A DNA stretch of 64,000 nt from Thermoplasmatota archaeon (lineage in GTDB: Archaea; Thermoplasmatota; Thermoplasmata; SG8-5; JACRNV01). The position numbers and the translations under genes are program-made. Of the stretch, positions 4,578 to 60,047 are shown piece by piece; within the stretch, counting starts at the first letter, position 1, and each line of letters begins with the position of its first letter. The notes below the pieces were generated by a model. That model saw nothing but the letters and a program-made list of their open reading frames with translations. It did no database searches and was not told the origin of the DNA. The DNA is taken from NCBI GenBank assembly GCA_040753455.1, contig JBFMEL010000001.1, positions 5,810-69,809 on the forward strand. Reading direction: 5' to 3'.

Positions 4578-5060
4578 ATGTTCGTCTTGGATGCCTCTGC
4601 CCTGCGCTCCGGTCGCTGCCTCTCAGTAGATGGGGAGATGGCCACCACCCCAAAGATACTGGAGGAGGTGAAGAGGGGTAACGCGGGAGAGATGGTTCAG
4701 TACCTCATAGAGGCGGGGCTGAAGGTCTTCTCACCTTCTCGGGATGCTCTGAGGGCTGTCAGCGAGGCAGCGAGGGAATGGGGAGAGGCAACACGCCTTT
4801 CCCAGAGCGACATAGAACTCCTGGCGCTTGCGCTCGAAACCCGCTCTACCATACTCACGGATGACTACTCGATCCAGAACATGGCGCGGGTATTGGGGAT
4901 CGATCACATGGGGATAGAGCAGGTTGGGATCACCGAGGTGTGGCGCTGGCGTGCGGTCTGCAGCGGCTGCAGAAGGGTGTATGACAGCCCGATGAGGGAG
5001 TGCCCTGTGTGCGGCTCTGAGATAAGATCTGGACGCCCTACAAGGGTGGGGCGAGCGTAA
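4578..5060 (+). CDS. nob1: Nob1-like endonuclease (PIN domain plus C-terminal zinc ribbon)
   Basis: PIN-like N-terminus (FVLDASAL) and CSGCRRVY...CPVCGS zinc ribbon. This is the archaeal Nob1 architecture. Confidence 0.7.
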   Translation: MFVLDASALRSGRCLSVDGEMATTPKILEEVKRGNAGEMVQYLIEAGLKVFSPSRDALRAVSEAAREWGEATRLSQSDIELLALALETRSTILTDDYSIQNMARVLGIDHMGIEQVGITEVWRWRAVCSGCRRVYDSPMRECPVCGSEIRSGRPTRVGRA

Positions 5061-12739: not shown

Positions 12740-14455
12740 GTGCGAGCATGCAAAGGAGACCAGGAACGCTGCAGGAGGCAGCGGCAAAAGCCCTGGCTCA
12801 ACACCCCTACGGAGGGTGGTAAATTGGTAGAAGCGCTGTTTAGAATCCCTAAGCCAGAGAACGAACCTGTCCTCTCGTATGCTCCAGGCACGAAGGAGAG
12901 GGCAGAGCTGAAGAAGAAGATAGAGGAGCTGAGGAGCAAGGAGATAGAGATACCCCTGATCATCGGTGGCAAGGAGGTCAGGACAGGGAGGACGGGAGAA
13001 TGCAGGTGCCCCCATGACCATGCTCATCTCATAGGCAGGTATCACCAGGCAGGGGAGGATGAGATTGCCCAAGCTATTGACAGCGCGCTTGAAGTTAGGG
13101 AGAGATGGGCAGCGATGGAGTGGTACCAGAGGGCTTCGATCTTCCTCAAGGCTGCTGACCTGCTCAGCGGTCCGTACAGGCAGATATTGAACGCTGCCGC
13201 GATGCTCTGCCAGAGCAAGAACGTCTTTCAGGCGGAGATCGATGCTGTGTGCGAGCTCATAGACTTCTGGAGGTTCAACGCATACTACATGCAGGAGATA
13301 TACGAGCAGCAGCCCGAGTCTGCGAAGGGTATGTGGAACAGGATACAGCACCGCCCGCTCGAAGGTTTTGTATTCGCAGTCACGCCCTTCAACTTCACAT
13401 CGATAGGGGGCAACCTGCCCACCGCCCCGGCGCTCATGGGCAACGTGGCAGTATGGAAGCCCGCCTCATCCGCTGTGTACTCCAACTACTTCGTGATGGA
13501 GGTGCTGAGGAGCGCTGGGCTACCGGGAGGTGTCATAAACTTCGTGCCCGGTCCAGGCTCAAAGGTCGGACCGATCGCGCTCAGGCACCCAGCACTGGCG
13601 GGGGTGCACTTCACGGGAAGCACCTCAACGTTCCAAGAGATGTGGAGGACGATCGGGCAGCACATCGCCAGCTACCGCTCGTATCCCAGGATCGTTGGTG
13701 AGACAGGCGGCAAGGACTTCGTCTTCGTGCACAGCAGCGCAGACATAGAGGAAGTGGTGGTTGGGTTGATAAGGGGTGCATTCGAATATCAAGGACAGAA
13801 GTGCTCTGCAGCCTCCCGTGCATATATCCCCAGCTCGATGTGGCCAAAGTTGAAGCACCGGCTGCTCGACGAGATCGCCAGGATCAAGATGGGCGGGGTG
13901 GAGGACTTCACCAACCTCATGAACGCCGTGATAGACAGGGCTGCATACGACAACATCGTGAGATACATCGAGCACGCGAAGAAGGCTGAGGACGCAGAGG
14001 TGATCGCAGGCGGCGGGTATGATGACAGCAAGGGATACTTCATCGAGCCCACGGTGATCCTCACCACGAACCCGCAGTTCCGCACGATGCAGGAGGAGAT
14101 CTTCGGTCCTGTGCTGACCGTCTATGTTTATGCTGATGAGAAATACGAAGAGACGCTGAGGCTGTGCGACACCACCTCTCCGTACGGGCTCACTGGCGCG
14201 ATCTTCGCCAAGGACAGGTACGCCATAGCCGAGGGTGAGAGGGCGCTGGTTAACTCTGCTGGAAACTTCTACATCAACGACAAGCCCACGGGCGCAGTGG
14301 TGAACCAGCAGCCGTTCGGCGGCGCAAGAGCCTCGGGCACGAACGACAAAGCAGGCTCGATCCTCAATCTCTTGAGATGGGTCTCGCAGCGCACCCTCAA
14401 GGAGACCTTCGTCCCGCCCAAGGACTGGCGCTATCCCTTCATGGGTGAGAAGTAA
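12740..14455 (+). CDS. rocA: Delta-1-pyrroline-5-carboxylate dehydrogenase (aldehyde dehydrogenase family)
   Basis: ALDH catalytic motifs FEYQGQKCSAASR and GETGGKDF. An alternative TTG start at 12824 has a GGAGGG RBS. Confidence 0.8.
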   Translation: MRACKGDQERCRRQRQKPWLNTPTEGGKLVEALFRIPKPENEPVLSYAPGTKERAELKKKIEELRSKEIEIPLIIGGKEVRTGRTGECRCPHDHAHLIGRYHQAGEDEIAQAIDSALEVRERWAAMEWYQRASIFLKAADLLSGPYRQILNAAAMLCQSKNVFQAEIDAVCELIDFWRFNAYYMQEIYEQQPESAKGMWNRIQHRPLEGFVFAVTPFNFTSIGGNLPTAPALMGNVAVWKPASSAVYSNYFVMEVLRSAGLPGGVINFVPGPGSKVGPIALRHPALAGVHFTGSTSTFQEMWRTIGQHIASYRSYPRIVGETGGKDFVFVHSSADIEEVVVGLIRGAFEYQGQKCSAASRAYIPSSMWPKLKHRLLDEIARIKMGGVEDFTNLMNAVIDRAAYDNIVRYIEHAKKAEDAEVIAGGGYDDSKGYFIEPTVILTTNPQFRTMQEEIFGPVLTVYVYADEKYEETLRLCDTTSPYGLTGAIFAKDRYAIAEGERALVNSAGNFYINDKPTGAVVNQQPFGGARASGTNDKAGSILNLLRWVSQRTLKETFVPPKDWRYPFMGEK

Positions 14456-23919: not shown

Positions 23920-24501
23920 GCAAGCGCATAGCCCATTGATGATAAAAATCTATCGAGATATGGAGATCTGCCCTCTGTGCATAGTATCTCGCATTCCATG
24001 CAACGACCTTTGAGATGTGCATCTCCACCTGCAGGATTCCGTGCCCGACCACTCGTCACCAGCGCATTCCATGCAACGACCTTTGAGAGCAGGTCAACGA
24101 TCCCACGGGCAGGTTTCAGGGCAACATCTTTTTATAATCAGAACCCCTCTTCACCACGCTAGGCTCGACCGGGGCGCTCGGCGTGCCCTTATACACCGAA
24201 ATCGTCGATAGCGGGGGTGACAGCTGAGGGCGGCGTAACCTGCCCTGCACGCGCCCTGTGCTCGACTATGAGACCCTGTCCTGCCGGGCGGGTGGCGGCT
24301 CTGCGGCGCAGCCGGAGGGCGGCGCCCTCTGCCCTGATCGTGGGGAACGGGTCAGGCCCTGACGGGAGCAGCCTAACCACGGATTACCTGCGCTGGCAGG
24401 GTTGCGGGGTCGAGAAGAGCACAGACATCCGCGCGCAGGAAAGGGCGACCACCTCAGCGGCCTAGCTCCCATCATATAATCAACACCAGGCCGCTGATCA
24501 A

Positions 24502-24960
24502 GACCACCACACAGCTACCCAACAGGACAGCTAACCCAGTGGTCGAATCCAGGGCGAGGAAACAATCTCCCATCATATTCTCGCCCTGTTCTCATCAACT
24601 TCCCAACGTTGATAGGACGTGAGGAGCATAAAAGCAAATAGAAAGCACCTCACGTCCGTATCCACGGCGAGGAAACAACCTCCAAGCGTATCCTCGCCGT
24701 GCTGCAAGCAGATAGCAACAACGATAGGACGTGAGGAGCATAAAAGCAAATAGAAAGCACCTCACGTCCGTATCCACGGCGAGGAAACAACCTCCAAGCG
24801 TATCCTCGCCGTGCTGCAAGCAGATAGCAACAACGATAGGACGTGAGGAGCATAAAAGCAAATAGAAAGCACCTCACGTCCGTGTCCACGGCGAGGAAAC
24901 AACCTCACATCATATACTCGCCGTGATAGACCGTGCTAGAATCAGATAGAAAGACCCTCA
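24502..24960. repeat. Modular hairpin-repeat locus 1: X1 element, Y hairpin, then three tandem 112-bp units (24611-24722, 24723-24834, 24835-~24946). Each unit holds an X2 and a Y hairpin.
   Basis: Units 1 and 2 are identical. X2 is ggacgtgagg-N23-cctcacgtcc. Y is (c)acggcgagga-aacaa...-(t)cctcgccgt(g). Confidence 0.7.
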
Positions 24961-25497
24961 CATCCTTACATCTTCTACGATGTCGTCCAGGAATATGATC
25001 CTGTCCGCGATGCGCCTGAGTTCTGTGCTGAGTACGCCCCTGAAGGTGGCGATCTCCACGCGCTTGCCCTTGTACTTCACCTTGTCCACTGTCTGGGCGA
25101 AATCCGCATCGCCGCTGACCAGCACCGCTGTGTCGAAGGCGTTCTCCCAGCTCAAGCACAAGAGGTCTGTGACAAGCGCAACATCCACCCCTTTCTCTGC
25201 GAAGTATAACTCCCCGCTGTTCGGGTCTGTCCTCTGCTGCAGGGGTCTCAGCACCACCTGGATGCCGCTGTACTGCAGCGATTCGTAGAACCTTGCCTGG
25301 CTGCTCTCTATCGGATCCCTGTGGCTGGAATAGTAGTACGCACGTAGCAGGTAGCGCCCGGCTGCCAGTTTTTCTACAAGTCTCCCGTAGTTGATCTTCA
25401 GGCTCGTACCGCGCTCGTCGTTGAAATGCCTCAGGGCATAGTATGTGTTTGAACCATCGATGAATATAGCCACGCGCTCCCGGTCCGAGTAGCTCAT
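24958..25497 (-). CDS. NYN-domain (LabA-like) putative ribonuclease
   Basis: VAIFIDGSN and VLVSGDADF motifs of the NYN/PIN-like fold. Confidence 0.75.
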   Translation of the reverse strand: MSYSDRERVAIFIDGSNTYYALRHFNDERGTSLKINYGRLVEKLAAGRYLLRAYYYSSHRDPIESSQARFYESLQYSGIQVVLRPLQQRTDPNSGELYFAEKGVDVALVTDLLCLSWENAFDTAVLVSGDADFAQTVDKVKYKGKRVEIATFRGVLSTELRRIADRIIFLDDIVEDVRM

Positions 25498-25574: not shown

Positions 25575-26783
25575 CTATCGCCCCTTTCTCAACAGGGCTG
25601 CCACCTCGGTGATGATCGCTTCCGCCAGAGCGCTCTTCGATCCCTCGAACTTTGTCTTCCGCCCATCCCTGCGTATCAGGATCGCCCTGGTTTTCGAAGG
25701 GGAGAGATGGCGCAGGTCGTTGGCAACGATCATCTCCAGCCGATGCTCCTTCAGGCGCTCTTCTGCCCTTTTGATCAGCTCTTTTTCTTCAACGCCATAT
25801 TCTGCCTTGAACCCCACAAGGACCCCTTTGTGCCTCTTCCTGAGATGGGAAAGGATCTTCTCCTGCCTTCTCAGCCTCAGCACCATCTCCTCTCTGTCTG
25901 ATGGGGTCTTGCCCCTCGCCTTTTCAGGCGCATAATCAGGGATCGCTGCGGGCACGATGATCGCATCTGCCTTCTTCCCTCTCAGGACCTCCCGTAGCTC
26001 GGCGACTGTTCTTGCCCTCGTGGTCGGGATGAACTGCGGTGCAGGGATATCTCCGGCCATCACTAGTTCGACATCCGCACCGCGCCCGAACCCTTCCACA
26101 GCTATCGCTATCCCTGTCTGGCCAGTAGCAGTGCTCCTCAGCTCCCTTACCGCGTCCCAGGGCTCTGCATAGCCTCCAGCCACCACGAGCAGCCTGCAGT
26201 CCTTCATATCCATGGGTCCCAGGGTTCGAAGGACGTGTGCTACCACCTCTTCAACACTCGCCATCTTTGCCTTGTTCTCAGCCAGTACTGGCTCCAAGAC
26301 CTTGACGCCGATCTTCTCGAGGGCGCGCAGGTTCTCCCTGACAATGGGATGTGAATACATCGAGGAGTGCATCCCGGGCACGATCATCACTGGGATGCCA
26401 GCACCGATGGCTGTCGTAGCCATGGTGGTCACGGGCGTGTCGTCTATCCCGCAGGCGATCTTTGATATGGTGTTTGCAGTCGCAGGCGCGATCAGGAGAA
26501 GGTCTGCTCTGTCTGCCACGTTTCCGCATAGGTCCACGTGCTGCACAGAGCCGTCAAGTTCGAGTATGGGGACATGACCACAGGCAAACCTCACCGCCTC
26601 AGGGTGTATAATCTGCTGAGCAGCGTGGGACATCACTGGATATATATCCGTTCCGTGCCTGATCAATTCTCTAGCAAGCTTCACCACCTCCACGGCGGCT
26701 ATGCTCCCTGTGATCCCCAGCACTATCCTCTTGCCCATGAGCTTCTGGCTCCTCGTTGCTCGGATCTCCACGCTCGGATGCAT
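25575..26783 (-). CDS. coaBC: Bifunctional phosphopantothenoylcysteine decarboxylase / phosphopantothenate-cysteine ligase
   Basis: Flavoprotein motif GITGSIAAV and the C-terminal CoaB region. Start placed at the internal Met, because the ORF track start overlaps the divergent gene. Confidence 0.85.
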   Translation of the reverse strand: MHPSVEIRATRSQKLMGKRIVLGITGSIAAVEVVKLARELIRHGTDIYPVMSHAAQQIIHPEAVRFACGHVPILELDGSVQHVDLCGNVADRADLLLIAPATANTISKIACGIDDTPVTTMATTAIGAGIPVMIVPGMHSSMYSHPIVRENLRALEKIGVKVLEPVLAENKAKMASVEEVVAHVLRTLGPMDMKDCRLLVVAGGYAEPWDAVRELRSTATGQTGIAIAVEGFGRGADVELVMAGDIPAPQFIPTTRARTVAELREVLRGKKADAIIVPAAIPDYAPEKARGKTPSDREEMVLRLRRQEKILSHLRKRHKGVLVGFKAEYGVEEKELIKRAEERLKEHRLEMIVANDLRHLSPSKTRAILIRRDGRKTKFEGSKSALAEAIITEVAALLRKGR

Positions 26784-26988
26784 CACCATCCCCCACAGGA
26801 TAGGAGGATTTATCGTTTTTGATTCCAGTGCTGCGTGGCATGATTTTTTGCCAGCAGGCAACACAGACCTTGATGCAAACGATCTGGCTCATGATTCATA
26901 CCCCAGGACTGTGCAATTCATACCCCAGGACATCGCACCAAAATTTATTTATGCGATTAAAGACATAGAGCCATTAAGGAGGCATATC

Positions 26989-27540
26989 GTGGGCGGATCC
27001 CCGGACAGCTCGACATCTCCCCATACCTGCCCCAGGTGCTCGCGGCCAGTACCGAATGAGGGGCTATGCAATGAGTGCCTCGCGGAGCAGCCTCCTGAGA
27101 AAGATCCGCAGGAGCGCGTTCGAGAGGCTATGGAGTACGTCCAGCACGAGGCTCAGCGTGGGAAGAGGCTGGGGGTTGACCTGGGGGAGATCGAGGACCT
27201 TCTGCTCGGTGCTAAGCTCATGCTCGATGCTGGAAGCTATGAAGATGCACTGAGGCTGATCAATGAGTGCGGCGAGATGGCTGGGGAGCGCATCCTGCAG
27301 TACGAGATGCTCATGAACAGTATCCGAAGATCGGAGAAGAAGATTAAGGACGCTGAGGAATACGGCGGCGATGTCTCTGAGGCACGCACACTTTTAGAAG
27401 CAGCCCAACGGGCACTTCAAGAGTCGGACTACAAGCGCGGCATCAGTTATGCCATCAGGAGCGCCGATGTGGCTGAGAAGGTGAGGCGCCAGTACGACTC
27501 CTGGCGGGTGGAGGTAGGCACCTACCTGAAAGAGAAGTGA
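26989..27540 (+). CDS. Zinc-ribbon hypothetical protein (GTG start)
   Basis: CPRCSRPV...CNEC ribbon followed by a helical charged region. GTG at 26989 is preceded by a TTAAGGAGG RBS. The ORF track start at 26701 would overlap coaBC. Confidence 0.5.
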   Translation: MGGSPDSSTSPHTCPRCSRPVPNEGLCNECLAEQPPEKDPQERVREAMEYVQHEAQRGKRLGVDLGEIEDLLLGAKLMLDAGSYEDALRLINECGEMAGERILQYEMLMNSIRRSEKKIKDAEEYGGDVSEARTLLEAAQRALQESDYKRGISYAIRSADVAEKVRRQYDSWRVEVGTYLKEK

Positions 27541-27587
27541 TATCCAAATAGAAGGCACCTCACGTCTATTTTCGGGCTTGACAGAAC

Positions 27588-27617: not shown

Positions 27618-27691
27618 GGGCCCGTGGGGTAGTCCGGACATCCTTTCGGCCTTCGGAGCCGATGACCCGAGTTCGAATCTCGGCGGGCCCG
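27618..27691 (+). tRNA. tRNA-Arg (anticodon TCG)
   Basis: Manual cloverleaf fold. Acceptor GGGCCCG/CGGGCCC. Anticodon stem TCGGC/GCCGA with loop CTTCGGA. T-arm CCGAG-TTCGAAT-CTCGG. Confidence 0.85.
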
Positions 27692-27729
27692 CTTACCCAC
27701 AACCCTTATAATCCACGCGCGCATACTAA

Positions 27730-27833
27730 TCCCGGCGGGCCCATGGTCTAGCGGTTACAGCTTGTGGTGTTGGCCAGGCAGCCGCAAATGACGGGTGTCT
27801 CACACACACCAGATCTCCGGTTCGAATCCGGAT
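27730..27833 (+). tRNA. tRNA-Val (anticodon CAC) with a ~31-nt intron at a non-canonical position in the D-loop/D-stem region
   Basis: Acceptor GGGCCCA/TGGGCCC. 5' D-stem and loop GTCT-AGCGGTTA (27739-27750). The insert is 27751-27781. Then TGAC-G-GGTGT-CTCACAC-ACACC-AGATC-TCCGG-TTCGAAT-CCGGA. The spliced product is 73 nt. Confidence 0.6.
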
Positions 27834-28215
27834 GGGCCCACATTTCTGTCCCGCAGAAAAAACGCAGCAGAAGAAATGTGGTAGGACGTGAGGAGCATAA
27901 AAGCAGATAGAAGCACCTCACGTCCGTGCCCAGGGCGAGGAAACACTCTCCTATCATATTCTCGCCCTGTTCGGAGCTCTAGGACAGACACAGCAAAAAC
28001 ACAGCAAAAGAAATGTGGTATAGACCACCTCACAGCTAACCAACAGGGCAGCTAACCAAGTGGTCGAACCCACGGCGAGGAAACAAACACACATCATATT
28101 CTCGCCGTGTTCTCAGCAAAAAAGAAACGCTGGTAGGACTACCGCACAACTAACCAATCGTGCAGTTAACCAAGTGGTCCGTACCCACGGCGAGGAAACA
28201 ATCTCTTCAGCCTAT
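27834..28215. repeat. Modular hairpin-repeat locus 2, immediately 3' of tRNA-Val: D hairpin, X2, Y, D-like, X1, Y, X1, Y
   Basis: D is cacatttctg-N-agaaatgtg. X2 is ggacgtgagg..cctcacgtcc. X1 is ggac(t/c)ac..cagctaacc..cagctaacc.agtggtcc. Y is ggcgagga-aaca..-ctcgcc. Confidence 0.65.
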
Positions 28216-28343
28216 CGCCCATCGAAATCACCCGTGCTATTCATTGACGATACCCCGCGCGACAAGGTGATTAAGCACCAGTGCCATATCACTCCACGGT
28301 GATATAAACGACGTATAGAAGGTTCAAGAATACCGCCACCCTC

Positions 28344-28547
28344 TTGATGTTCGGATATCTCTTCATCTTTCAGCTGATCGCATCCAGTTACGTGGCCATG
28401 TACCCGAAGGACCTCCTGGTGGCGCTCGGGCTCCTCATCGGTGTTGGGATGGTCATAGCCGCGGGTTATGGGCTCCTGGGCCCCGATACCAAGCGATCCA
28501 CCCCCTTCTCCCATCCTGCCTGGCGTCCCAAGGGGACACAGGCTTAG
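28344..28547 (+). CDS. Small putative membrane protein (67 aa)
   Basis: Two hydrophobic segments. GC3-rich codon usage like the neighbours. Weak RBS. Confidence 0.3.
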   Translation: MMFGYLFIFQLIASSYVAMYPKDLLVALGLLIGVGMVIAAGYGLLGPDTKRSTPFSHPAWRPKGTQA

Positions 28548-31832: not shown

Positions 31833-32240
31833 CTATATGTCGAACAGCACCTCCGCCACCCCTCTCTCCACGTCAACGATTAGCATGTGGTACGTGACAG
31901 CCTTGACCTCCATCCTCAGTGTGTGTTTCTCGGGGTTCATGGGCTCACCCCAGGCGCGGGCAAGCAAACGCTCGCCATCCCTGCGCACCTCGAACCTGGA
32001 GAAGAGGAAGGCGTGCGCGTCCACCAGGTAGATGATCTCTGACAGAAAGCTGTAGAGCATTTCGTATGGTTCGCCAGGCTCCACGCTGATCTCCTTTATC
32101 TCTCTGCCCTCGACGGTCTCAGGGTCGCAGATGATGCTCATCATGCCCAGGGCAGCGCTCTCGAAGATCTCCTCCATGGTGCTGCCATGTGCCCTCACGC
32201 CAACATCTGCGGTGTGCTCTATGATCTCGAAGCGGGGCAT
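31833..32240 (-). CDS. Archease (RtcB ligase activator)
   Basis: MPRFEIIEHTADVGVRAHG is the archease N-terminal signature. 136 aa from the internal Met. Confidence 0.8.
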   Translation of the reverse strand: MPRFEIIEHTADVGVRAHGSTMEEIFESAALGMMSIICDPETVEGREIKEISVEPGEPYEMLYSFLSEIIYLVDAHAFLFSRFEVRRDGERLLARAWGEPMNPEKHTLRMEVKAVTYHMLIVDVERGVAEVLFDI

Positions 32241-32359
32241 CCTGCAGGCTGATACACCATGTGCTGATAACAGTTGCGCAGCGCGCCGCGATGACCCCCG
32301 AGCAAAACCTCGCGCGGATATTCCTGCTCTGGCTCGGATGATGGCGCTGGTCTCACTGC

Positions 32360-34195
32360 TCAGAAGAAGACAGGCGCCTTTCTCAGCCAGTCCACGTCCG
32401 AATTGTAGAGGGCGCGCATGTCCTCCAAGCCAAAGAGCACCATCGCCAGGCGCTCGAGCCCCTGACCCCATGCCATCACCGGGTGTTTGATTCCGAATGG
32501 GGCAAGCACCTCAGGGCGGAACATCCCTGCACCGCCCAGCTCCATCCACCTCCCCGCGTAGAAGGTCTCGACCTCCATGCTGGGCTCTGTGTACGGGAAG
32601 TAGCTGGGACGTATGCGGATCTGCTCGAACCCCATGCGCCTGTAGTATTCTGTGAGTATCCCCTTCAGCATCGCGAGGCTGGCATCCTCCTCCATCGCTA
32701 TGCCCTCCACCATCTGGAACTCCGCCAGGTGCCTTGCATCTATAGATTCTCTGCGGAAGACCCTTCCTATGGTGAATATCCTCACCGGGGGATCGGGATG
32801 CTCAGAAAGGTAGAGGATGCTGTTTACGGTGGTATGGGTCCGGAGGATCGCCTTCGTGGCATCCTCCTCCCTCCAGGCGTATCCCCAGCCCAGCGAGCCG
32901 TCTATGCCTTCTTCGTGGGCTTTCCTCACCTTCTTCACATACCCTTGCATGGGCAGGGGGATGCGGCTCGGTTGCGAAAGGTAGAAGGTGTCCTGCATCT
33001 CCCTCACTGGGTGATCCTGGGGGGTGAAGAGCGCGTCCATGTTCCAGAATGTGGACTGCACATAGCCGAACTCCACCTCGGTGAAGCCCATGGCCATGAA
33101 CGTCTCCCTGATCTTGGCGATGAACCTGCACAGCGGATGGCGCTTCCCGCCCTCGGCTGCTGGAGCATACGTGTCAGGGGCATAGGGTCTGAAACTGAGA
33201 TTTTTCCATGCGCCGGATACTAAGTGCTGCGGGGTGAGCTGGCTCACCTCTGAAACGATCCTCAGTCCTTCCTTTATCAGCGGCTCTGCCGCAGGGGCGA
33301 GGCTGGCCCAGCGCATCACCTCTTCCCTCGTTCTCAGCAGCCCCTGGCGCGACGTCAGCTGCCTCAGCACCACCTCATCGATCTCGCGCTCGTGCAGCTC
33401 CCCCATCTTTCCGAGCAGGGCAATCGTTTCCTCATCTTTCCCCTTGCGCTCGAGCGCCTCCTTCCCCTCCTCAGTGAGCACGAGGATCGTCTCTCCACCC
33501 ACCTTTTCAATCCTTGCCCATCCCTTGCGCTTCAGCCAGCCAACAGCGATGCTCACGTCGTCCTTGGAGAGCCTTGCGGCGGCGCCCAGCTCATCCATCC
33601 TTGCCTTTCCGCGCATCTTGCGCAGCGCCTTGAGCGCCTTTCTCTCTGGGAGGTCGGCTCCTGCCACATGCTTCCTGGCAAGAGAGTAGTAGCGCTCGAG
33701 GGTCTCTGAGATGAGCACGAGCCCTTTCGCCTGCAGCCAGGAGACAGCGTTCATCACCTCCACCTGCGATAGAAGCCCCACATCCCTCTTCTCCTCAGGG
33801 AGCACGGCGAGCTTCGACAGCGCGCTGCTGATCGCAGGCACTGCATCCCCAGTGAGATGCGCGAACCCCTTGCGCTGCAGCGGCACCTCGATACCGACCC
33901 AGGAGGGCAGGCAGCGGCTCGCCAGCACCCGCGTAACCTCCCCTCTGTAGTCCTCCTTTTCCTCGGCGATTATGGTGAGAAGGGCGCGCATGAGCTCGTC
34001 CACCTCGCGCTCCTTGGGCACCCTGCCCGCAGAGCTTTCTAGATCGAGCAGTGCCTGGCGCATCGTTGAGAGATGGGCCGCAACATCCTCCGGGGCAGAG
34101 CTGCGGATGATCTCCCATGGCGTGCCTGTGCCTCCGAGCTTCGAGAGCGCCAGGAGCACGCGCCGTTCGGCGCTGCTCAACTCCTCGACCTTCAT
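32360..34195 (-). CDS. pheS: Phenylalanyl-tRNA synthetase alpha subunit (archaeal/eukaryal type) with an extended N-terminal wHTH-repeat region
   Basis: Class II core FRPEVLAPFGI..WGQGLERLAMV and motif 2 region. Start at the Met MKVEEL. Confidence 0.85.
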   Translation of the reverse strand: MKVEELSSAERRVLLALSKLGGTGTPWEIIRSSAPEDVAAHLSTMRQALLDLESSAGRVPKEREVDELMRALLTIIAEEKEDYRGEVTRVLASRCLPSWVGIEVPLQRKGFAHLTGDAVPAISSALSKLAVLPEEKRDVGLLSQVEVMNAVSWLQAKGLVLISETLERYYSLARKHVAGADLPERKALKALRKMRGKARMDELGAAARLSKDDVSIAVGWLKRKGWARIEKVGGETILVLTEEGKEALERKGKDEETIALLGKMGELHEREIDEVVLRQLTSRQGLLRTREEVMRWASLAPAAEPLIKEGLRIVSEVSQLTPQHLVSGAWKNLSFRPYAPDTYAPAAEGGKRHPLCRFIAKIRETFMAMGFTEVEFGYVQSTFWNMDALFTPQDHPVREMQDTFYLSQPSRIPLPMQGYVKKVRKAHEEGIDGSLGWGYAWREEDATKAILRTHTTVNSILYLSEHPDPPVRIFTIGRVFRRESIDARHLAEFQMVEGIAMEEDASLAMLKGILTEYYRRMGFEQIRIRPSYFPYTEPSMEVETFYAGRWMELGGAGMFRPEVLAPFGIKHPVMAWGQGLERLAMVLFGLEDMRALYNSDVDWLRKAPVFF

Positions 34196-35749: not shown

Positions 35750-35857
35750 CCCGACTTAGCTCAGACTGGCTGGAGCGGCTGACTGTAGTAGGTCATCGGC
35801 AACGCCGATTCAGCTGCTGAAATCAGCAGGTCCCCGGTTCAAATCCGGGAGTCGGGA
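35750..35857 (+). tRNA. tRNA-Tyr (anticodon GTA) with a ~33-nt intron at the canonical 37/38 position
   Basis: Acceptor CCCGACT/AGTCGGG. D-arm GCTC..GAGC. Anticodon stem GCTGA/TCAGC with loop CTGTAG[intron]A. 5-nt variable loop. T-arm CCCGG-TTCAAAT-CCGGG. Confidence 0.65.
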
Positions 35858-35880
35858 TTATTTTATTAGCATATACGAGA

Positions 35881-36320
35881 CTCCTGGATAGGACTACCGC
35901 ACAGCTAACCAACTGGACAGCTAACCCAGTGGTCCGTTTCCGGGAGACGGGATCACATTTCTGTTTGCATCAATCAAGCAGAGAAAGAAATGTGATAGAC
36001 CGCAAGGAGCATAAAAGCAAACAAAAATCACCTTGCGGTCGTGTCTACGGCGAGGAAACAATCTCACATCGTATCCTCGCCGTGCTGCAAGCAGATAGAA
36101 ACACCGATAGGACTACCGCACAATTACCCAATATAACAGTTAACCAAGTGGTCCGTGTCCACGGCGAGGAAACAATCTCACATCGTATCCTCGCCGTGCT
36201 CTCATCATCCTCCCAGCAATGATAGGACGTGAGGAGCATAAAAGCAAGTAGAAAGCACCTCACGTCCGTGTCCAGGGCGAGGAAACAATCTCCCATCATA
36301 TACTCGCCGTGATAGAAGGA
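35881..36320. repeat. Modular hairpin-repeat locus 3, 3' of tRNA-Tyr: X1, D, X2 (variant stem), Y, X1, Y, X2, Y
   Basis: Same element families as loci 1 and 2. The X2 copy at ~36002-36040 has the stem gaccgcaagg/ccttgcggtc with the loop conserved. Confidence 0.65.
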
Positions 36321-36402
36321 GATAGAAACAAAGATAGGCCTCCTGGGTAGCTCACCCAATGAGGGGAGATCCCAATGGCCTCAGAAAATGTGAACCGTCC
36401 AT

Positions 36403-40274: not shown

Positions 40275-41074
40275 TGCTCTCCCTCTGTGATGAGCCTGTG
40301 CCTGGACAGGTGTTCCATCAAGTTTCTTGCCTTCTCCCTTGCCCTCTCTCCCTCGATCATGACCCCCTTCCCCCTGGGTGGAGGGGTGTAAGTCCTCACC
40401 ACCTGGGTGAAGGAGCCCTGTATGCCAAGCCTCGTGCGCTCGCCGCCTATGGCTTCGGCGTTCCACTCCTCGTAGGGCTTCTTCTTTGCCTTTAATATCC
40501 CGCTCATCGGCGGGTATCCCGGGGTGAAGGAAGTGGGGGGGAGGAGCGCCAGGAGCGCTGGCAGACGCACCTCCATCAGCAGATAGCCCTCCTCTGTCTG
40601 CTTGCGCACCTTCAACCCGCCATCTGCGCACTCCACGCTCTCCACATAGGTGACCTGCGGGATCTCCAGATGCTGAGCCAGCTCTGGTCCGACCTGTGCC
40701 GTATCGCCGTCTATCGCCTGCTGCCCGCAGAGGACGAGATCGAACGCACCGAGCTTCTTCGCAGCCAAGGACAGGGTGTAGGAGGTCGCCCATGTGTCAG
40801 CGCCTGCAAACGCCCTGTCTGTAAGCAGCACAGCGTCATCAGCGCCCAGTGCCAGGCATCTCATCAGTGCGCTCCTTGCCTGGGGTGGACCCATACTCAG
40901 CGCAGTGACCCTTCCGCCCTTGACCTCCCTCAGCCTCACAGCCTCCTCGACCGCGAACTGGTCATAGGGGTTCAGGATGCTCGGCACGCCCTCCCTTATC
41001 AGGGTATTGGTCCTTGGGTCTATCCTTACCTCGGTGGTGTCAGGCACCTGCTTCACGCAGACGATGATCCTCAT
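40271..41074 (-). CDS. etfB: Electron transfer flavoprotein beta subunit
   Basis: MRIIVCVKQVPDT is the EtfB N-terminal signature. ATGA overlap with etfA. Confidence 0.85.
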   Translation of the reverse strand: MRIIVCVKQVPDTTEVRIDPRTNTLIREGVPSILNPYDQFAVEEAVRLREVKGGRVTALSMGPPQARSALMRCLALGADDAVLLTDRAFAGADTWATSYTLSLAAKKLGAFDLVLCGQQAIDGDTAQVGPELAQHLEIPQVTYVESVECADGGLKVRKQTEEGYLLMEVRLPALLALLPPTSFTPGYPPMSGILKAKKKPYEEWNAEAIGGERTRLGIQGSFTQVVRTYTPPPRGKGVMIEGERAREKARNLMEHLSRHRLITEGEQ

Positions 41075-41418
41075 GCGGCCCGCCCCCTCGGTGATCTTGG
41101 CATGGGGCAAGGCTCGTCCCCTATCCTCTGAGTATAGGAAGGCTGGGTCAGCGCCATCCTGAGAGAGGTGAGGACGAGGCTGCAGAGCCCGAGGCGCTTC
41201 CTGCTGAGCTCGGTGATGTCCTGCCTTGCTATGATCCATGACTTGTGGCGGTTCATGTAGCGTTCACCCATGGTGAAACACTTATGAGATATCATCTTTT
41301 CTCTTTCAGGAGATATGTTAACACATCCATCAAAACCCATTAGAAACGAGGATCGAGAGGGCAATCTTGCTTCTGTTGGTAGTCCAGATGCAGAGCTATC
41401 GGCAATAACGGTAATTAT

Positions 41419-44400
41419 ATGTATGGCGATGCAGATAAAGGGATCATGTCAGATTCCGCCACCGGGGCGAAGGGCAAGAAGGGGCAGCAGAAGCACTCCA
41501 GGAAGATCGCGGCGCTCGCTGCAGTTATCGACGCCGCAAGGGCAAAGTTAAAGGAGACGGTGCAGAAACATTCTGGGAAGATCGCAGCACTCGGCGCTGT
41601 TATCGCCGGCGCGGCTGGCGGGTTCGGACTTGTCGGGCTCTTCACTGCAGCGCTGCCGTTCCTCGGTCACAGACTGGTCGGGGAGTTCGCAGCGGCTGTG
41701 GGCGTAGAAGGCCTTGTGAAACTCGGTGAGCGAGCAGTCACAGGCGAGCCTCTGAGAAAAGAGGACCTCAGGACGCTGGAGGAGGCGCAGAGCCGATTGA
41801 TGGAGTTGCTCGCAGACTCAGCGACAGCTACGCAAAACCTGCATGCTCTTTGCGCGCAACTTTTGCAGGAGGAGCAGCTCACCCAGCACCTGACGAGCGA
41901 CATGATCAAAAGCCTTCGCGACGATATAAATAAGCTCAGCGCAGAAAATCAGGAGCAGTTCTCTGAGATCATCGGAAAGCTCGACGCGCTCCAGGAGAAG
42001 CTCGAAGAAGTGCACGAAGAGGTGCGGCGCTGCGGGCTCGTCAGCTTGAAAGAGGAAGTCTCCAGCATCAGCCGGGAGGGTCTAGAAGAGCAGCACAAAA
42101 GATTCGATGAGTATTTTCTGGGCGGAGTCCCGTGGGGCGTAATCGTATACGAGATCGATGTGCGGCGCGAGGTCACGACAAAAATCATCAACAGATTGAA
42201 GGGGGGCAACAGCATGTTGCTCCTCGGCAAGAGTGGCTCCGGAAAGAGCACGATACTGAAGCGCGCGGCGTATCTGTTGTTTCTCGAAGGATACAACGTG
42301 TTTTACAACTGCGGCAGTATCGATGTGGAGCGCGCGTACAGGTTGCTCACGGAGGAAGAGGGTACAAAGGTCGTGGTTGTGGACGATGCTGATCTTCGCT
42401 GGGACGCTATCAAAGCACTGCACGAATGCTGCATAGAGCATGGGCGTACTGACATCGTGATGCTCTTAGCCGAGCGCACGGAGCGGTTCAAGCACGGCAC
42501 GGCAGGCACAGCTATCAAAGAAGAAAAATTGACACTCACCCGTAATGATGTAAAGGAGCTTTGGAGGTCCACTGGTGATGTTGTGCCAGTAAGAGATGAT
42601 GTGATGGACTTCCTCCTCCAGTGGTGCGGCGATGAGTATATCCTCGCCAAGATATACTCGCTGGGTTACACGGGCGATTCAGAAGAACGATTGGAGGAAC
42701 TGGCGCGCACACGGTATGAGGCGCTGAGGGAGTTGCCCCGAAACCTCAGGACACCACTATTTCCTATAGCATGCATGGCTGCGTACGATTGTGCGCTACC
42801 GCGAAGGGTGTTCGAGAGGTTAGGGCATGATGCTGCGGACCTTGAGGAGTTGGCGAGGCGCGGGTATGTATCTATCGAGGACAGTGCCCTGCGGGGCTAC
42901 CACCCGGTGATTGCGAAGAGGTTTCTCCGCTGCTATCTTGAAGGGGGGGCATATGATTTTGTAGATTGCGTTGTGAACCGCATCCTGCCGCGGCTCGGCG
43001 AGGGCGAAGAGAAAGAAGCTGACGCGGGACTGTGTTTCTCGCTGGGAACAAACATTGCTGTGGAGCAAGAAGATAGGATAGAAAAGGACAAAAAAGTGCT
43101 CGAGGTTGCATTGAAATCTCTGGACAGATGTCTCGAACTGACGCCCGACCACGCGGAGGCGTGGAACAACAAAGGCAACACGCTCGATAGCATGGACCGC
43201 TACGAGGACGCGCTCGTTGCTTATGATAAGGCGCTCGCCATCAACACGCAGTTGGCGGAGGCGTGGAATAACAAAGGCACCACACTCCACCATATGCAGC
43301 GCTGTGATGAGGCACTCGTCGCTTATGATATGGCACTTGCACTCAACCCAGACTATGTAGAGGCATGGAACAACAAAGGCACTCTGGTCTCCAACATGCA
43401 GCTGCATGATGAGGCACTAGCCGCTTATGATAAGGCACTTGCACTCAACCCCGACTATGCGGCGGCGTGGAACAACAAAGGTTTCATGCTCATACGCATG
43501 GAGCGCTATGATGAGGCGCTTGCCGCCTGCGACAAAGCGCTCCAGCTCAACTCGCGGTATGTGGAGGCGTGGAACAACAAAACCCTCGCGCTCGCCCACA
43601 TGCAGCGTTGTGATGAGGCGCTTGCCGCCTGCGAGGAAGCGCTCCAACTCAATCCACGGTATGCAGAGGCGTGGAACAACAAAGGCTTCACGCTCGCATG
43701 CATGGAGCGCTATGATGAGGCACTAGCCGCTTATGATAAGGCGCTCGAATTCAACCCGCAACTTGCAGAGGCCTGGAACAACAAAGGCAACACGCTCGCA
43801 CACATGCAGCGGTACGAGGAAGCGCTCGCCGCCCATGATAAGGCGCTCGAACTCAACCCGCAGTTGACGGAGGCGTGGTACAACAAAGGCAACACACTCA
43901 ACCAAATGCAACGCTATGATGAGGCGCTCGCCGCATACGACAAAGCGGTCGAACTCAATCCACAATTTGCGAAGGCGTGGAACAACAAAGGCCTCACGCT
44001 CGCACACGTGCAGCGCTACGAGGAAGCGCTCGCCGCTTATGATAGGGCGCTCGCCATCAACCATCAGCTTGCGGAGGTGTGGTACAACAAAGGCCTCACG
44101 CTCGCACACGTGCAGCGCTACGAGGAAGCGCTCGCCGCCTATGATAAGGCGCTTGCCATCAACCCGCAGTTGGCGAAGGGGTGGGGCGCGCGCGGGCTTA
44201 CGGAGCTGAGTATGGGGAGGTACGAACATGCGGCGTTTGATTCTGCATGTGCGCACTTTCTGACACGCCTTGGGATAGGGCAGGAGAGATTGTTGGAGCC
44301 AACCGCGCGTCAGTTCATGCAGGCTAGCGATGCGCTGCGCGGCACGGGTGCGTTCCACGATGCAGCCATCCTTTACGCTGTGATGGCTTTTGAGAAAAGG

Positions 44401-44691
44401 GCTGAAGTTGCTGCGCCATTGTGGCGTGAACGTGAGAAGATCACACACATACTTGCCCGCTGCATGCTGTACGATATCGTGGGCGAAGCGCTGACCGAGA
44501 TTAAGCCGGCGATGGATGAGGAGCGCAAAGTAATCGAATGGTATGCCCGCAGCTTGGCGGAGAAAAAGGTCCATGAGGAGTTCCGGGAATACCTTTGGGC
44601 GCTGGTGCGCGGCGACGCGCGGCGCGACGCGGCGTTTGCACTTGCCACATTGTACCTGCTCGTGGAAGAAGGCGTGATGGTTTCGCCATAG
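41419..44691 (+). CDS. STAND-type P-loop NTPase: N-terminal TM/coiled-coil region, central NTPase and ~13 C-terminal TPR repeats
   Basis: Walker A LLLGKSGSGKSTILKRAAYLL and Walker B VVVVDDAD. Hydrophobic segment AALGAVIAGAAGGFGLVGLFTAALPFL. The repeated AWNNKGxxLxxMxRYDEALAAYDKAL module is a TPR. The true start is possibly the Met at 41446. Confidence 0.75.
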   Translation: MYGDADKGIMSDSATGAKGKKGQQKHSRKIAALAAVIDAARAKLKETVQKHSGKIAALGAVIAGAAGGFGLVGLFTAALPFLGHRLVGEFAAAVGVEGLVKLGERAVTGEPLRKEDLRTLEEAQSRLMELLADSATATQNLHALCAQLLQEEQLTQHLTSDMIKSLRDDINKLSAENQEQFSEIIGKLDALQEKLEEVHEEVRRCGLVSLKEEVSSISREGLEEQHKRFDEYFLGGVPWGVIVYEIDVRREVTTKIINRLKGGNSMLLLGKSGSGKSTILKRAAYLLFLEGYNVFYNCGSIDVERAYRLLTEEEGTKVVVVDDADLRWDAIKALHECCIEHGRTDIVMLLAERTERFKHGTAGTAIKEEKLTLTRNDVKELWRSTGDVVPVRDDVMDFLLQWCGDEYILAKIYSLGYTGDSEERLEELARTRYEALRELPRNLRTPLFPIACMAAYDCALPRRVFERLGHDAADLEELARRGYVSIEDSALRGYHPVIAKRFLRCYLEGGAYDFVDCVVNRILPRLGEGEEKEADAGLCFSLGTNIAVEQEDRIEKDKKVLEVALKSLDRCLELTPDHAEAWNNKGNTLDSMDRYEDALVAYDKALAINTQLAEAWNNKGTTLHHMQRCDEALVAYDMALALNPDYVEAWNNKGTLVSNMQLHDEALAAYDKALALNPDYAAAWNNKGFMLIRMERYDEALAACDKALQLNSRYVEAWNNKTLALAHMQRCDEALAACEEALQLNPRYAEAWNNKGFTLACMERYDEALAAYDKALEFNPQLAEAWNNKGNTLAHMQRYEEALAAHDKALELNPQLTEAWYNKGNTLNQMQRYDEALAAYDKAVELNPQFAKAWNNKGLTLAHVQRYEEALAAYDRALAINHQLAEVWYNKGLTLAHVQRYEEALAAYDKALAINPQLAKGWGARGLTELSMGRYEHAAFDSACAHFLTRLGIGQERLLEPTARQFMQASDALRGTGAFHDAAILYAVMAFEKRAEVAAPLWREREKITHILARCMLYDIVGEALTEIKPAMDEERKVIEWYARSLAEKKVHEEFREYLWALVRGDARRDAAFALATLYLLVEEGVMVSP

Positions 44692-58062: not shown

Positions 58063-60047
58063 GGTTGGAGGGAGCTACGAAGATAGGCGTATACGTCTGC
58101 GAGTGCGGGATCAATATCTCAGCCGCTGTGGACGTGGCAAAGGTCGCAGAGCATGCAAAGGGATTGCCTGATGTTGTGGTGAGCAGGTACTACAAATACA
58201 TGTGCTCCGACCCTGGACAGTCCCTCATAAAGAATGATATAAAGGAGATGGGGCTCACCCACGTGGTGGTAGCCTCCTGCTCCCCGAGGATGCACGAGCC
58301 CACCTTCAGAGCGGTGGTCGAGGAGGGGGGGGTGAACCCCTACTGCTTCGAGATGGCGAACATCAGGGAGCACTGCTCCTGGGCGCACATGCGTGAAAAG
58401 GATAAGGCGACAGAGAAAGCAAAGGACCTGGTGAGGATGGCCGTAGCCAAGGCAAGGCTGCTTCGACCGCTGCAGAGAAAGCAGGTGCCCGTCACGCCCG
58501 CCGCGCTGGTGATCGGGGGTGGGATCGCAGGCATACAAGCCGCGCTGGAGATCGCAGAGAGCGGGTTCAAGACCTACCTGGTAGAGCGGACACCGAGCAT
58601 CGGGGGTCGCATGGCGCAATTAGACAAGACCTTCCCCACACTGGACTGCTCCGCCTGCATCCTCACACCTAAGATGGTGGATGTCGCCAGGCACCCCAAC
58701 ATCGAGCTGCTCACATACTCGGAGGTCACGGGTGTCGAGGGATACATCGGCAACTTCAAGGCGACAGTAAAGAAGAAAGCCAGATATGTGGACATAGACA
58801 AATGCGTGGGCTGCGGTCGGTGCGCCGAGGCATGCAGGCTAAAGGGACGTGTAGCCGACGAGTTCAATGAGAAACTCGGCAAACGCAGTGCGATATACGT
58901 GCCGTTTCCTCAGGCAGTGCCGCTGAAGTACACGATCGACCCAGAGCGTTGCATATTTTTAAAGACTGGTAAATGCGGCGACTCCCCGCTGTGCGTGGAA
59001 GCCTGTGAGGCAAATGCCATCGACCATCAGCAGAAAGATGATGTCGTTGACCTTGAAGTGGGCACCATCGTTGTGGCGACAGGCTTCGATCTATACGATC
59101 CATCCCAGAAACCAGAATACGGGTATGGAAAGATCAAAAATGTGATCACTGGCTTGGAGTTCGAGAGGCTCGTATCCGCCTCTGGTCCCACAGGGGGGCA
59201 CATCGAGGTAAACGGTAAGGAGCCCAGGAGGGTGGTCTTCATCCAGTGCGTGGGATCGAGGGACAAGGAGGGCAACGAGTACTGCTCGCGCGTGTGCTGC
59301 ATGTACACAGCCAAGCACGCGCATCTCGTGAGGGAGAAGATCCCCGGCGCCAATGTCACGATCTATTATACCGATGTAAGAGCCTTTGGTAAAGGTTTCG
59401 AGGAGTTCTACAACAGGGTGAAGGGCGAGGGCGTTGCATACCGCAGAAGGGAGCTGGACGATGCCATCGAGGTCGTGGAGGATGATGGCAGGACCATCGT
59501 CAAAGCCCAGGGCCACGAAGATATAGAGGCAGACTTGGTGGTGCTGGCGACCGCGATCGTTCAGCGAACAGATATCGAAGAGCTTGCCAGGGTGTTGAAG
59601 GTCTCACGCGGTGCAGACGGCTTCTTCCTGGAGATTCATCCAAAACTAAGACCCATGGACACTGCCACCGGAGGGATATTCATAGCAGGCTGCTGCCAGT
59701 CCCCAAAGGATATCCCTGACACGGTCGCGCAGGCGAGCGGTGCGGCAGCCAAGGCATCGATACCCCTCTCGCAGGGGAAGATCGATCTAGACCCCCAGAG
59801 GTCTGAGGTCATCGATGAGAACTGCGACGGCTGCGCATACTGCATAGAGCCGTGTCCGTTCAAGGCACTGACATTAATCGAGTATATGCGGGATGGCGCG
59901 ATCAAGAAGACGGTGGAAGCAAATGAGGCTCTGTGCCAGGGCTGCGGTGTCTGCCAAGCCACGTGTCCCAAACAGGGGATCATCGTGAGAGGGTTCACGA
60001 CCAAGCAGATCTCTGCAATGGTCGATGCCCTTCTCGGGGTGGTGTAG
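58059..60047 (+). CDS. hdrA: Heterodisulfide reductase subunit A
   Basis: N-terminal Cys cluster [13 protein letters not shown] motif [13 protein letters not shown], and inserted ferredoxin domains. GTGA overlap start. Confidence 0.9.
   Translation: MRLEGATKIGVYVCECGINISAAVDVAKVAEHAKGLPDVVVSRYYKYMCSDPGQSLIKNDIKEMGLTHVVVASCSPRMHEPTFRAVVEEGGVNPYCFEMANIREHCSWAHMREKDKATEKAKDLVRMAVAKARLLRPLQRKQVPVTPAALVIGGGIAGIQAALEIAESGFKTYLVERTPSIGGRMAQLDKTFPTLDCSACILTPKMVDVARHPNIELLTYSEVTGVEGYIGNFKATVKKKARYVDIDKCVGCGRCAEACRLKGRVADEFNEKLGKRSAIYVPFPQAVPLKYTIDPERCIFLKTGKCGDSPLCVEACEANAIDHQQKDDVVDLEVGTIVVATGFDLYDPSQKPEYGYGKIKNVITGLEFERLVSASGPTGGHIEVNGKEPRRVVFIQCVGSRDKEGNEYCSRVCCMYTAKHAHLVREKIPGANVTIYYTDVRAFGKGFEEFYNRVKGEGVAYRRRELDDAIEVVEDDGRTIVKAQGHEDIEADLVVLATAIVQRTDIEELARVLKVSRGADGFFLEIHPKLRPMDTATGGIFIAGCCQSPKDIPDTVAQASGAAAKASIPLSQGKIDLDPQRSEVIDENCDGCAYCIEPCPFKALTLIEYMRDGAIKKTVEANEALCQGCGVCQATCPKQGIIVRGFTTKQISAMVDALLGVV

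Follow-up and report, generated by a model that had tools for sequence, protein, structure and literature searches.

A stretch of 64 kb (64,000 nucleotides, nt) from a Thermoplasmatota archaeon (assembly GCA_040753455.1, contig JBFMEL010000001.1, positions 5,810 to 69,809 of the forward strand), here called the window, carries a modular array of short hairpins directly 3' of a tRNA-Val gene. A preliminary description of this locus left two readings side by side, a small-RNA array co-transcribed with tRNAs and a family of nested miniature mobile elements. The question is which of them, if either, fits this array and its two counterparts elsewhere in the window. Within the window the arrays sit on the same strand 3' of the highly expressed stable-RNA genes for tRNA-Val, tRNA-Tyr and signal recognition particle (SRP) RNA. 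Our preferred reading, to which we give about even odds, is that they encode structured non-coding RNA modules of a family not described so far, which would be expressed together with these stable-RNA genes or immediately behind them.

Hairpin arrays behind stable-RNA genes

The array behind tRNA-Val (A2) is composed of the hairpin families D, X2, Y and X1, and every element which the preliminary description had listed for it, including a D-like element and X1-Y modules, was found in its place. The same grammar had been claimed for loci near 24.5 kb and 35.9 kb, and the modules could be identified at both (arrays A1 and A3, Table 1). The elements form a unit of about 113 nt with a repeat period of 112-114 nt, consisting of a (G/A)UAG tag, an X hairpin (X1 or X2), a GU(G/A)UCC spacer, a Y hairpin and an A-rich linker which ends in AGAAAC. 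The D hairpin arises in some units by pairing of this linker with CACAUUUCU further upstream. In A1 the second and third units are 112-nt copies without a difference. As the period is not a multiple of three, coding repeats were excluded.

The X2 core GAGGAGCATAAAAGCA occurs six times against 0.45 expected occurrences and the Y motif GGCGAGGAAAC..CTCGCC nine times against none expected, all on the plus strand; a tenth, decayed Y starts at 28186. D reads CACATTTCTG...AGAAATGTG at A2 (27839-27880) and has a second copy at A3 (35954-35994), with 0 matches expected from shuffles. Altogether 30-odd element copies are present, every one on the plus strand, and nhmmer (--max, E up to 10) revealed no further copy on either strand of the window besides a half-copy of X2. 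This fragment, which had been noticed earlier upstream of tRNA-Arg, is real but weak, and is located between the stop codon of the open reading frame (ORF) 26701-27540 and the tRNA-Arg promoter. The arrays fill exactly three of the 24 intergenic gaps of at least 50 nt, namely the three lying 3' of stable-RNA transcription units. According to a rough estimate of our own, this placement and the shared orientation would arise by chance with a probability of about 1e-4. The tRNA-flanking position proposed for the elements holds for A2 and A3, which follow tRNA-Val and tRNA-Tyr, but not for A1, which follows the SRP RNA.

The plus strand of the arrays has a base composition of A 0.32-0.33, C 0.26-0.30, G 0.21-0.23 and T 0.17-0.20, compared to window averages of A 0.22, C 0.28, G 0.30 and T 0.20. 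AGCA reaches 20 per kb in the arrays, which is fourfold the background of 5 per kb, and GATAG is found there 16 times; neither of these counts is made up of independent occurrences.

The gene upstream of A2 had been named tRNA-Val, and its spliced sequence is indeed called tRNA-Val(CAC) by ARAGORN. The unspliced gene was overlooked by ARAGORN and Rfam because of its 30-nt intron in the D arm. This is a non-canonical intron position, for which standard finders overlook the gene or call it 'Ala' with a canonical intron. The array was thought to start 1 nt after the tRNA 3' end. However, the 5' arm of D (27838-27847) contains the final three bases of tRNA-Val, that is two acceptor-stem bases and the discriminator, so that array and tRNA directly adjoin and share these bases. 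The second D-like element is present but comprises a 3' arm only and is therefore a linker variant; the minimum-free-energy fold joins this arm to the D 5' arm at 27838-27847. From the two X1-Y pairs described at the end of A2 both X1 hairpins and the first Y were recovered, but the last Y has lost its 3' arm.

Neither a TATA-like box nor a T-run is found between tRNA-Val and A2, and in a distant relative, which is described below, no TATA-like box separates tRNA-Val from the array. The layout of co-transcription (same strand, directly 3', no promoter or terminator between) is present at both of these arrays, and co-transcription with tRNA-Val would be the simplest reading of their sequences. 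A2 would be reached by read-through from the stable-RNA promoter, since promoter and T-run are absent and the D helix extends across the 3' end of the tRNA. At A1 and A3 a TATA-like box lies between the stable RNA and the array, and A3 is preceded by TTATTTTATTAGCATATAC, in which a T-run is followed by the box TTTTATTA/GCATATAC (35861-35876). The box of A1, CATCATATAAT, resembles TTTATAATC and CTTATAATCC, the boxes 26-31 nt 5' of the SRP RNA and tRNA-Val genes. In general the A1 and A3 boxes resemble those found 26-31 nt upstream of four stable-RNA genes, and they are located about 25 nt ahead of the first (G/A)TAG-equivalent position, so that A1 and A3 may start on their own. Because the internal units lack a TATA-like box in half of the copies, each array is probably transcribed as a single precursor. 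Runs of at least four T are absent from the arrays and from the 200 nt beyond them, except just after tRNA-Tyr.

Table 1. Stable-RNA genes, arrays and array elements in the window (positions within the 64 kb).
Feature	Position	Strand	Remarks
SRP (7S) RNA, archaeal	24157-24467	+	Rfam RF01857, 153 bits; precedes A1
TATA-like box CATCATATAAT	24471-24481	+	between SRP RNA and A1; read from the sequence; possible promoter
Array A1	24502-24968	+	starts 34 nt after SRP RNA; nine elements
A1 X1	24502-24544	+	
A1 Y	24550-24588	+	
A1 X2	24615-24657	+	
A1 Y	24663-24701	+	
A1 X2	24727-24769	+	
A1 Y	24775-24813	+	
A1 X2	24839-24881	+	
A1 Y	24887-24925	+	
A1 X2, decayed	24926-24968	+	
X2 3'-half fragment, isolated	27545-27566	+	22 nt; nhmmer E=0.0017, weak match
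tRNA-Arg(TCG)	27618-27692	+	ARAGORN; Rfam 57 bits; 44 nt 5' of tRNA-Val
tRNA-Val(CAC)	27737-27840	+	30-nt D-arm intron 27761-27790; ARAGORN on spliced sequence; 3' half 20 bits (Rfam)
Array A2	27838-28220	+	D, X2, Y, D-like linker, X1, Y, X1, decayed Y; directly 3' of tRNA-Val(CAC)
A2 D	27838-27881	+	10-bp stem CCACATTTCT/AGAAATGTGG; A-rich 24-nt loop
A2 X2	27884-27925	+	10-bp stem GGACGTGAGG/CCTCACGTCC; 22-nt loop AGCATAAAAGCAGATAGAAGCA
A2 Y	27931-27969	+	11-bp stem, 17-nt loop
A2 D-like linker	27976-28018	+	A-rich repeat CACAGCAAAA twice; 3' arm AGAAATGTGG; no local 5' arm
A2 X1	28023-28065	+	outer stem GACCAC/GTGGTC; inner 4-bp helix AGCT/AGCT; CAGCTAACCA twice
A2 Y	28071-28109	+	
A2 X1	28136-28180	+	outer stem GGACTAC/GTGGTCC with U·G wobble; inner helix AACT/AGTT
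A2 Y, decayed, terminal	28186-28220	+	5' arm and GAAAC kept, 3' arm gone; E=2.7e-10
tRNA-Tyr(GTA)	35752-35857	+	canonical 33-nt intron; Rfam 50.5 bits; ARAGORN with intron option and on spliced sequence
Array A3	35887-36385	+	starts 29 nt after tRNA-Tyr; nine elements
A3 X1	35891-35935	+	
A3 D	35953-35995	+	
A3 X2, variant	35998-36040	+	
A3 Y	36046-36084	+	
A3 X1	36110-36154	+	
A3 Y	36160-36198	+	
A3 X2	36225-36267	+	
A3 Y	36273-36311	+	
A3 X1-like hairpin	36333-36385	+	

Selection on the hairpins

Selection on the plus strand maintains the hairpins, whose large A/C-rich loops show conserved sequences. The variant X2 of A3 has four stem pairs changed on both sides with all pairs kept, which is matched by none of 500 shuffles, and it retains the loop AGCATAAAAGCAAA. 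In X2 95.5% of the stem cells are paired, compared to 30-58% when the partners are slid. X1 has an outer stem of 7 bp, and both copies of an internal repeat form an inner helix of 4 bp. This repeat (CAGCTAACCA) with its AGCT, AACT and AATT variants was already recognized in the preliminary description; the inner helix covaries, reading AGCU/AGCU, AACU/AGUU or AAUU/AGUU with every cell paired (100%), while the repeats are invariant save the apical 5 nt. The exchanges in the Y stem are CG-to-GC and GC-to-AU, and the four compensatory pairs of D are seen among three copies, the relative's copy included. The covariation that had been suggested as a check is found in the stems of all four families, with four compensatory changes each in X2 and D and one each in X1 and Y, modest numbers which are not to be taken as formal probabilities. 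RNAalifold independently predicts the X1 and Y helices.

Intact copies contain nine G·U/U·G cells on the plus strand, which represent at least five separate events, and no A·C cell; A·C cells are confined to the two decayed terminal copies. This points to the plus strand as the folding strand. The plus strand of A2 folds with z = -5.25.

Relatives were reached by walking from homologues of the GvpD-like protein, CoaBC and the M29 peptidase to 17 loci. A tRNA is present at a single one of them, and an array follows it there. In this relative (GCA_016214785.1, locus L127) CoaBC is 65% identical to the CoaBC of the window and the flanking protein genes differ. A tRNA-Val(UAC) is followed by a D-like hairpin, X1, a Y-like hairpin with the covarying stem CACGACGAG/CTCGTCGTG and the linker GATAGAATCAGATGG, where the fetched stretch ends. 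The relative's X1 is 81-82% identical to X1 of the window (nhmmer E = 2.8e-12), the 60 nt 5' of tRNA-Val are 46% identical, and the four-fold degenerate sites of CoaBC, which are saturated, 23%. The conservation of X1 against these saturated sites indicates purifying selection about as strong as on a stable RNA. The order tRNA-Val, D, X1, Y is old and has survived a divergence that saturated the neutral sites. It may be that the family is limited to a narrow clade of the Thermoplasmatota which is poorly sampled.

Two other observations were made in the relatives. The tRNA-Val(UAC) of L127 (about 13994-14098) has a 29-nt intron at the same D-arm site as the tRNA-Val of the window, and the intron 3' end GCCG.AAATG is conserved. 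A second relative's contig (L126, 5382-5453) encodes a DUF3800-X RNA (Rfam RF02984, 69.5 bits) beside a DUF3800 gene.

Competing explanations

The arrays recall the repetitive extragenic palindromic (REP) elements and bacterial interspersed mosaic elements (BIMEs) of Proteobacteria, and could be DNA of this kind or resemble miniature inverted-repeat transposable elements (MITEs), i.e. palindromic repeats which are spread by a transposase acting on single-strand hairpins (RAYT, IS200/IS605-like) as mosaic clusters in permissive extragenic sites. Any role would then be structural, in supercoiling or in the stabilisation of RNA 3' ends. Like BIMEs, the arrays are a modular mosaic of several short hairpin families in clustered units with a fixed grammar. 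Every X stem has an unpaired (G/A)TAG at its 5' foot, similar to the GTAG tag of the REPs, which likewise have G·T pairs in their stems and lie mostly downstream of genes (PMC3733652). Turnover is suggested by the identical adjacent units, the decayed copies at the array ends and the isolated half-copy. Most copies of the tag, however, read GATAG, and only two read GTAG (27881 and 28133), with ATAG/TATAG elsewhere; Y and D are untagged, and ATAG is not among the degenerate forms listed for REPs (PMC3733652). All array copies are arranged head-to-tail, an arrangement that is absent or rare among REP dimers, most of which are head-to-head or tail-to-tail; moreover, GTAG REPs are reported from bacterial phyla only (PMC3733652), and the host of the arrays is an archaeon. 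The loops of 17-23 nt are conserved and the stems covary, which is the opposite of what a protein recognizing DNA hairpins is expected to cause. Array copies are restricted to gaps 3' of stable-RNA genes, and the order of the tRNA-Val array is retained in the distant lineage. At the array ends neither a shared terminal inverted repeat of at least 6 nt nor a target-site duplication was found, and the flanks share only chance 5-mers. Among the 52 window ORFs scanned there is no RAYT, Y1 or other transposase domain, nor an integrase, reverse transcriptase or Cas domain; the neighbouring genes are housekeeping genes (CoaBC, PheRS, AspRS, FEN1, archease, SHMT). Plasmid and phage (blastn) as well as viral collections contain nothing that matches the elements. 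With no inverted repeats or duplications at the ends, no transposase, no off-site or minus-strand copy in 64 kb and no plasmid, phage or viral match, the nested miniature mobile elements of the preliminary description find no support in the window, and we regard an origin as REP-like or MITE-like DNA as quite improbable.

An explanation that needs no product acting in trans is that the arrays are 3' trailers working in cis, as a barrier to 3'-to-5' exonucleases, as a brake or stop for RNA polymerase behind very active stable-RNA genes without oligo-T terminators, or as insulation of the following gene. Their constant position directly 3' of stable-RNA genes and their stable, G+C-rich stems fit such a role, as do the convergent genes faced by A1 (the NYN gene ending at 24958) and A3 (the M29 peptidase gene ending at 36403), the missing T-run terminators of the SRP RNA and tRNA-Val, and the D helix that takes in the tRNA 3' end. 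But a generic barrier needs stems, whereas the 17-23-nt loops are the best conserved parts here, both within the genome and in the relative, and three or four hairpin families in a fixed order exceed what a roadblock requires. The lack of a T-run after the arrays makes them unlike intrinsic terminators, and tRNA-Tyr already has TTATTTTATT ahead of A3. A purely cis-acting trailer therefore seems unlikely to us. That the arrays are neutral tandem duplications, produced by slippage or unequal crossing-over and with hairpins that are incidental and without function, would agree with the 100% identity of units 2 and 3 of A1 and with the different numbers of units in the arrays. It is hardly credible in view of the compensatory stem changes, the about 82% conservation of X1 against 23% at four-fold degenerate sites, and the modules common to three unlinked loci and another genome.

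Some results also weigh against the arrays being RNA genes. The minus strand folds well too (z = -4.5). The covariation was counted mostly among paralogous copies of shared ancestry, because one relative locus with about 150 nt of array was recovered; together with 64 kb of the host genome this is the evidence base. G·T pairs are tolerated in hairpins of single-stranded DNA, and REP elements show them as well (PMC3733652). In the relatives closest by their M29 peptidase (64-68% identity) the syntenic site lacks both tRNA-Tyr and an array, and the sites in the window which are complementary to the array RNA form duplexes at chance level only. A small-RNA array co-transcribed with tRNAs nevertheless appears to be the best fit to the orientation, the plus-strand wobbles, the covariation, the D helix over the tRNA 3' end and the old order, but with the restriction that A1 and A3 may have a TATA-like box of their own.

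Known RNA families give no match. None of the arrays has an Rfam 15 hit at the gathering score, and for A2 and A3 an E value of up to 10 yields only chance hits, self-cleaving ribozyme multimers not being among them. Guide RNAs were rejected as candidates: the units contain no C box RUGAUGA or D box CUGA, the Rfam C/D models score at most 15 bits with E values of at least 1.4, and for H/ACA small RNAs (sRNAs) there is no pocket, as the Y and X2 stems are continuous, and no Rfam match. A CRISPR array was dismissed as well, since variable spacers are absent and the sequence between the Y hairpins is the conserved X hairpin plus linker. Further candidates which were tried and dropped are a Y loop mimicking an anti-Shine-Dalgarno sequence (CCUCC is present in two of ten copies only), origin-recognition boxes (no Orc1/Cdc6 context) and antisense RNAs to targets in the window.

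In genome contigs the pattern GGCGAGGAAAC-N13-21-CTCGCC has at least 119 single chance matches from G+C-rich bacteria and no locus with three or more motifs. In metagenome contigs 62 loci with two Y cores 96-112 nt apart were found, none of them with a Y hairpin or an X motif. Full-text literature searches returned no account of such arrays. Metagenome contigs with several hits, such as L159 (1836-4003), L189 and L140, carry unrelated purine-rich non-coding tandem arrays with periods of 118 nt (18 copies) and 58 nt, which have only the 11-mer GGCGAGGAAAC in common with Y and no similar hairpins.

Several features of the window are recorded here for completeness. The NYN-domain (PIN-like RNase) gene 24958-25497 on the minus strand is convergent on A1 and has its stop codon within the decayed X2 of that array; a PIN_6 RNase ORF is located at 4578-5060 and the archease gene (tRNA-ligase cofactor) at 31833-32471. 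The 3' strand of SRP RNA helix 8, GGGAGCAGCCTAACCACGG (24367-24385), resembles by eye the second X1 repeat and stem, GGGCAGCTAACCAAGTGG. A derivation of X1 from helix 8 was nevertheless rejected, as the 17/24 similarity was seen by eye and nhmmer reports none. Downstream of A2 a 67-codon ORF (28344-28547, plus strand), which is hydrophobic-rich by eye and may encode a small membrane protein, has its own TATA-like box GATATAAAC at about 28300; relatives have an ORF of 81-87 aa at the equivalent position beside a GvpD-like gene. The 102-nt tandem repeat at 43132-44247 is coding and corresponds to the TPR repeats of a 1090-aa STAND NTPase-TPR protein (41419-44691), upstream of which lies the largest gene-free gap of the window (40794-41418, 625 nt), without an Rfam match. 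A 300-nt stretch (58086-58385) recurs 2447 nt downstream (60533-60832) with 94% identity, and CxxCxxC-type 4Fe-4S cluster motifs are recurrent across 53-64 kb.

A possible role of the array RNAs

If the arrays are RNA genes, a cut by RNase Z after A27840 would free A2 and set the 5' terminus of the array RNA; the GAUAG linkers may be cutting sites for another nuclease. Stability would come from the G+C-rich stems. The loops are the most conserved feature in sequence and, being A/C-rich, are unlikely to pair with themselves, which makes them the putative recognition surfaces: CAGCUAACCA twice in X1, AGCAUAAAAGCA..AGCA in X2 and GAAACAAUCUCC in Y. Each transcript might offer many binding sites for a protein or for a G/U-rich RNA and serve as a sponge or scaffold that is produced in parallel with the translation apparatus. 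On this basis we propose, tentatively and with more doubt than confidence, a new class of abundant trans-acting archaeal RNAs, two-hairpin modules which would be produced along with tRNAs and SRP RNA and released by tRNA-processing enzymes, and whose conserved A/C-rich loops would bind and titrate a protein of translation or RNA metabolism or a G/U-rich RNA.

Promoterless small RNAs located 3' of a tRNA are known from the dicistronic tRNA-snoRNA genes of plants and the co-transcripts of tRNA and C/D box sRNA in Nanoarchaeum equitans. The arrays share with them a structured RNA directly 3' of the tRNA on the same strand, which would be released by tRNA 3' processing; they differ in being multi-unit, in having no C/D or H/ACA features and in occurring also behind the SRP RNA. 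The sponge RNAs CsrB, RsmY and RsmZ similarly consist of tandem hairpins with recurring unpaired motifs, comparable to AGCA and to CAGCUAACCA, which is present twice per X1. Their motif is a different one, however, binding by the arrays is purely hypothetical, and we know of no CsrA-type partner in archaea. The ToxI RNA of type III toxin-antitoxin systems is also made of structured tandem direct repeats which are cut to units, as the arrays would be, and an RNase gene (NYN) is found beside A1. But ToxI repeats have about 36 nt, compared to about 113 nt in the two-hairpin array units, the NYN gene converges on A1 instead of following it on its strand, and no nuclease gene lies beside A2 or A3. 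With CRISPR the arrays share hairpin-bearing direct repeats and, in Y, a ...GAAAC motif, in contrast to which they have two hairpin types alternating with a period of 112-114 nt, no variable spacers and no cas gene among the scanned ORFs.

Very little is known of the regulatory and structural RNAs of uncultured archaea. In this case the sequence alone provides covarying structures, a strict placement rule and deep conservation, without a match to a curated family. Should REP-like DNA prove to be the right reading, the arrays would be the first archaeal mosaic repeats of this kind with a preference for stable-RNA genes. If they are expressed, they would represent a new RNA family and a new way of organizing archaeal small-RNA genes, and the X1, X2 and Y loops would be baits for finding the partner. 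In case the proposed trans-acting role is true, the arrays would be an archaeal counterpart of the bacterial sponge RNAs with a gene organization that was not described before.

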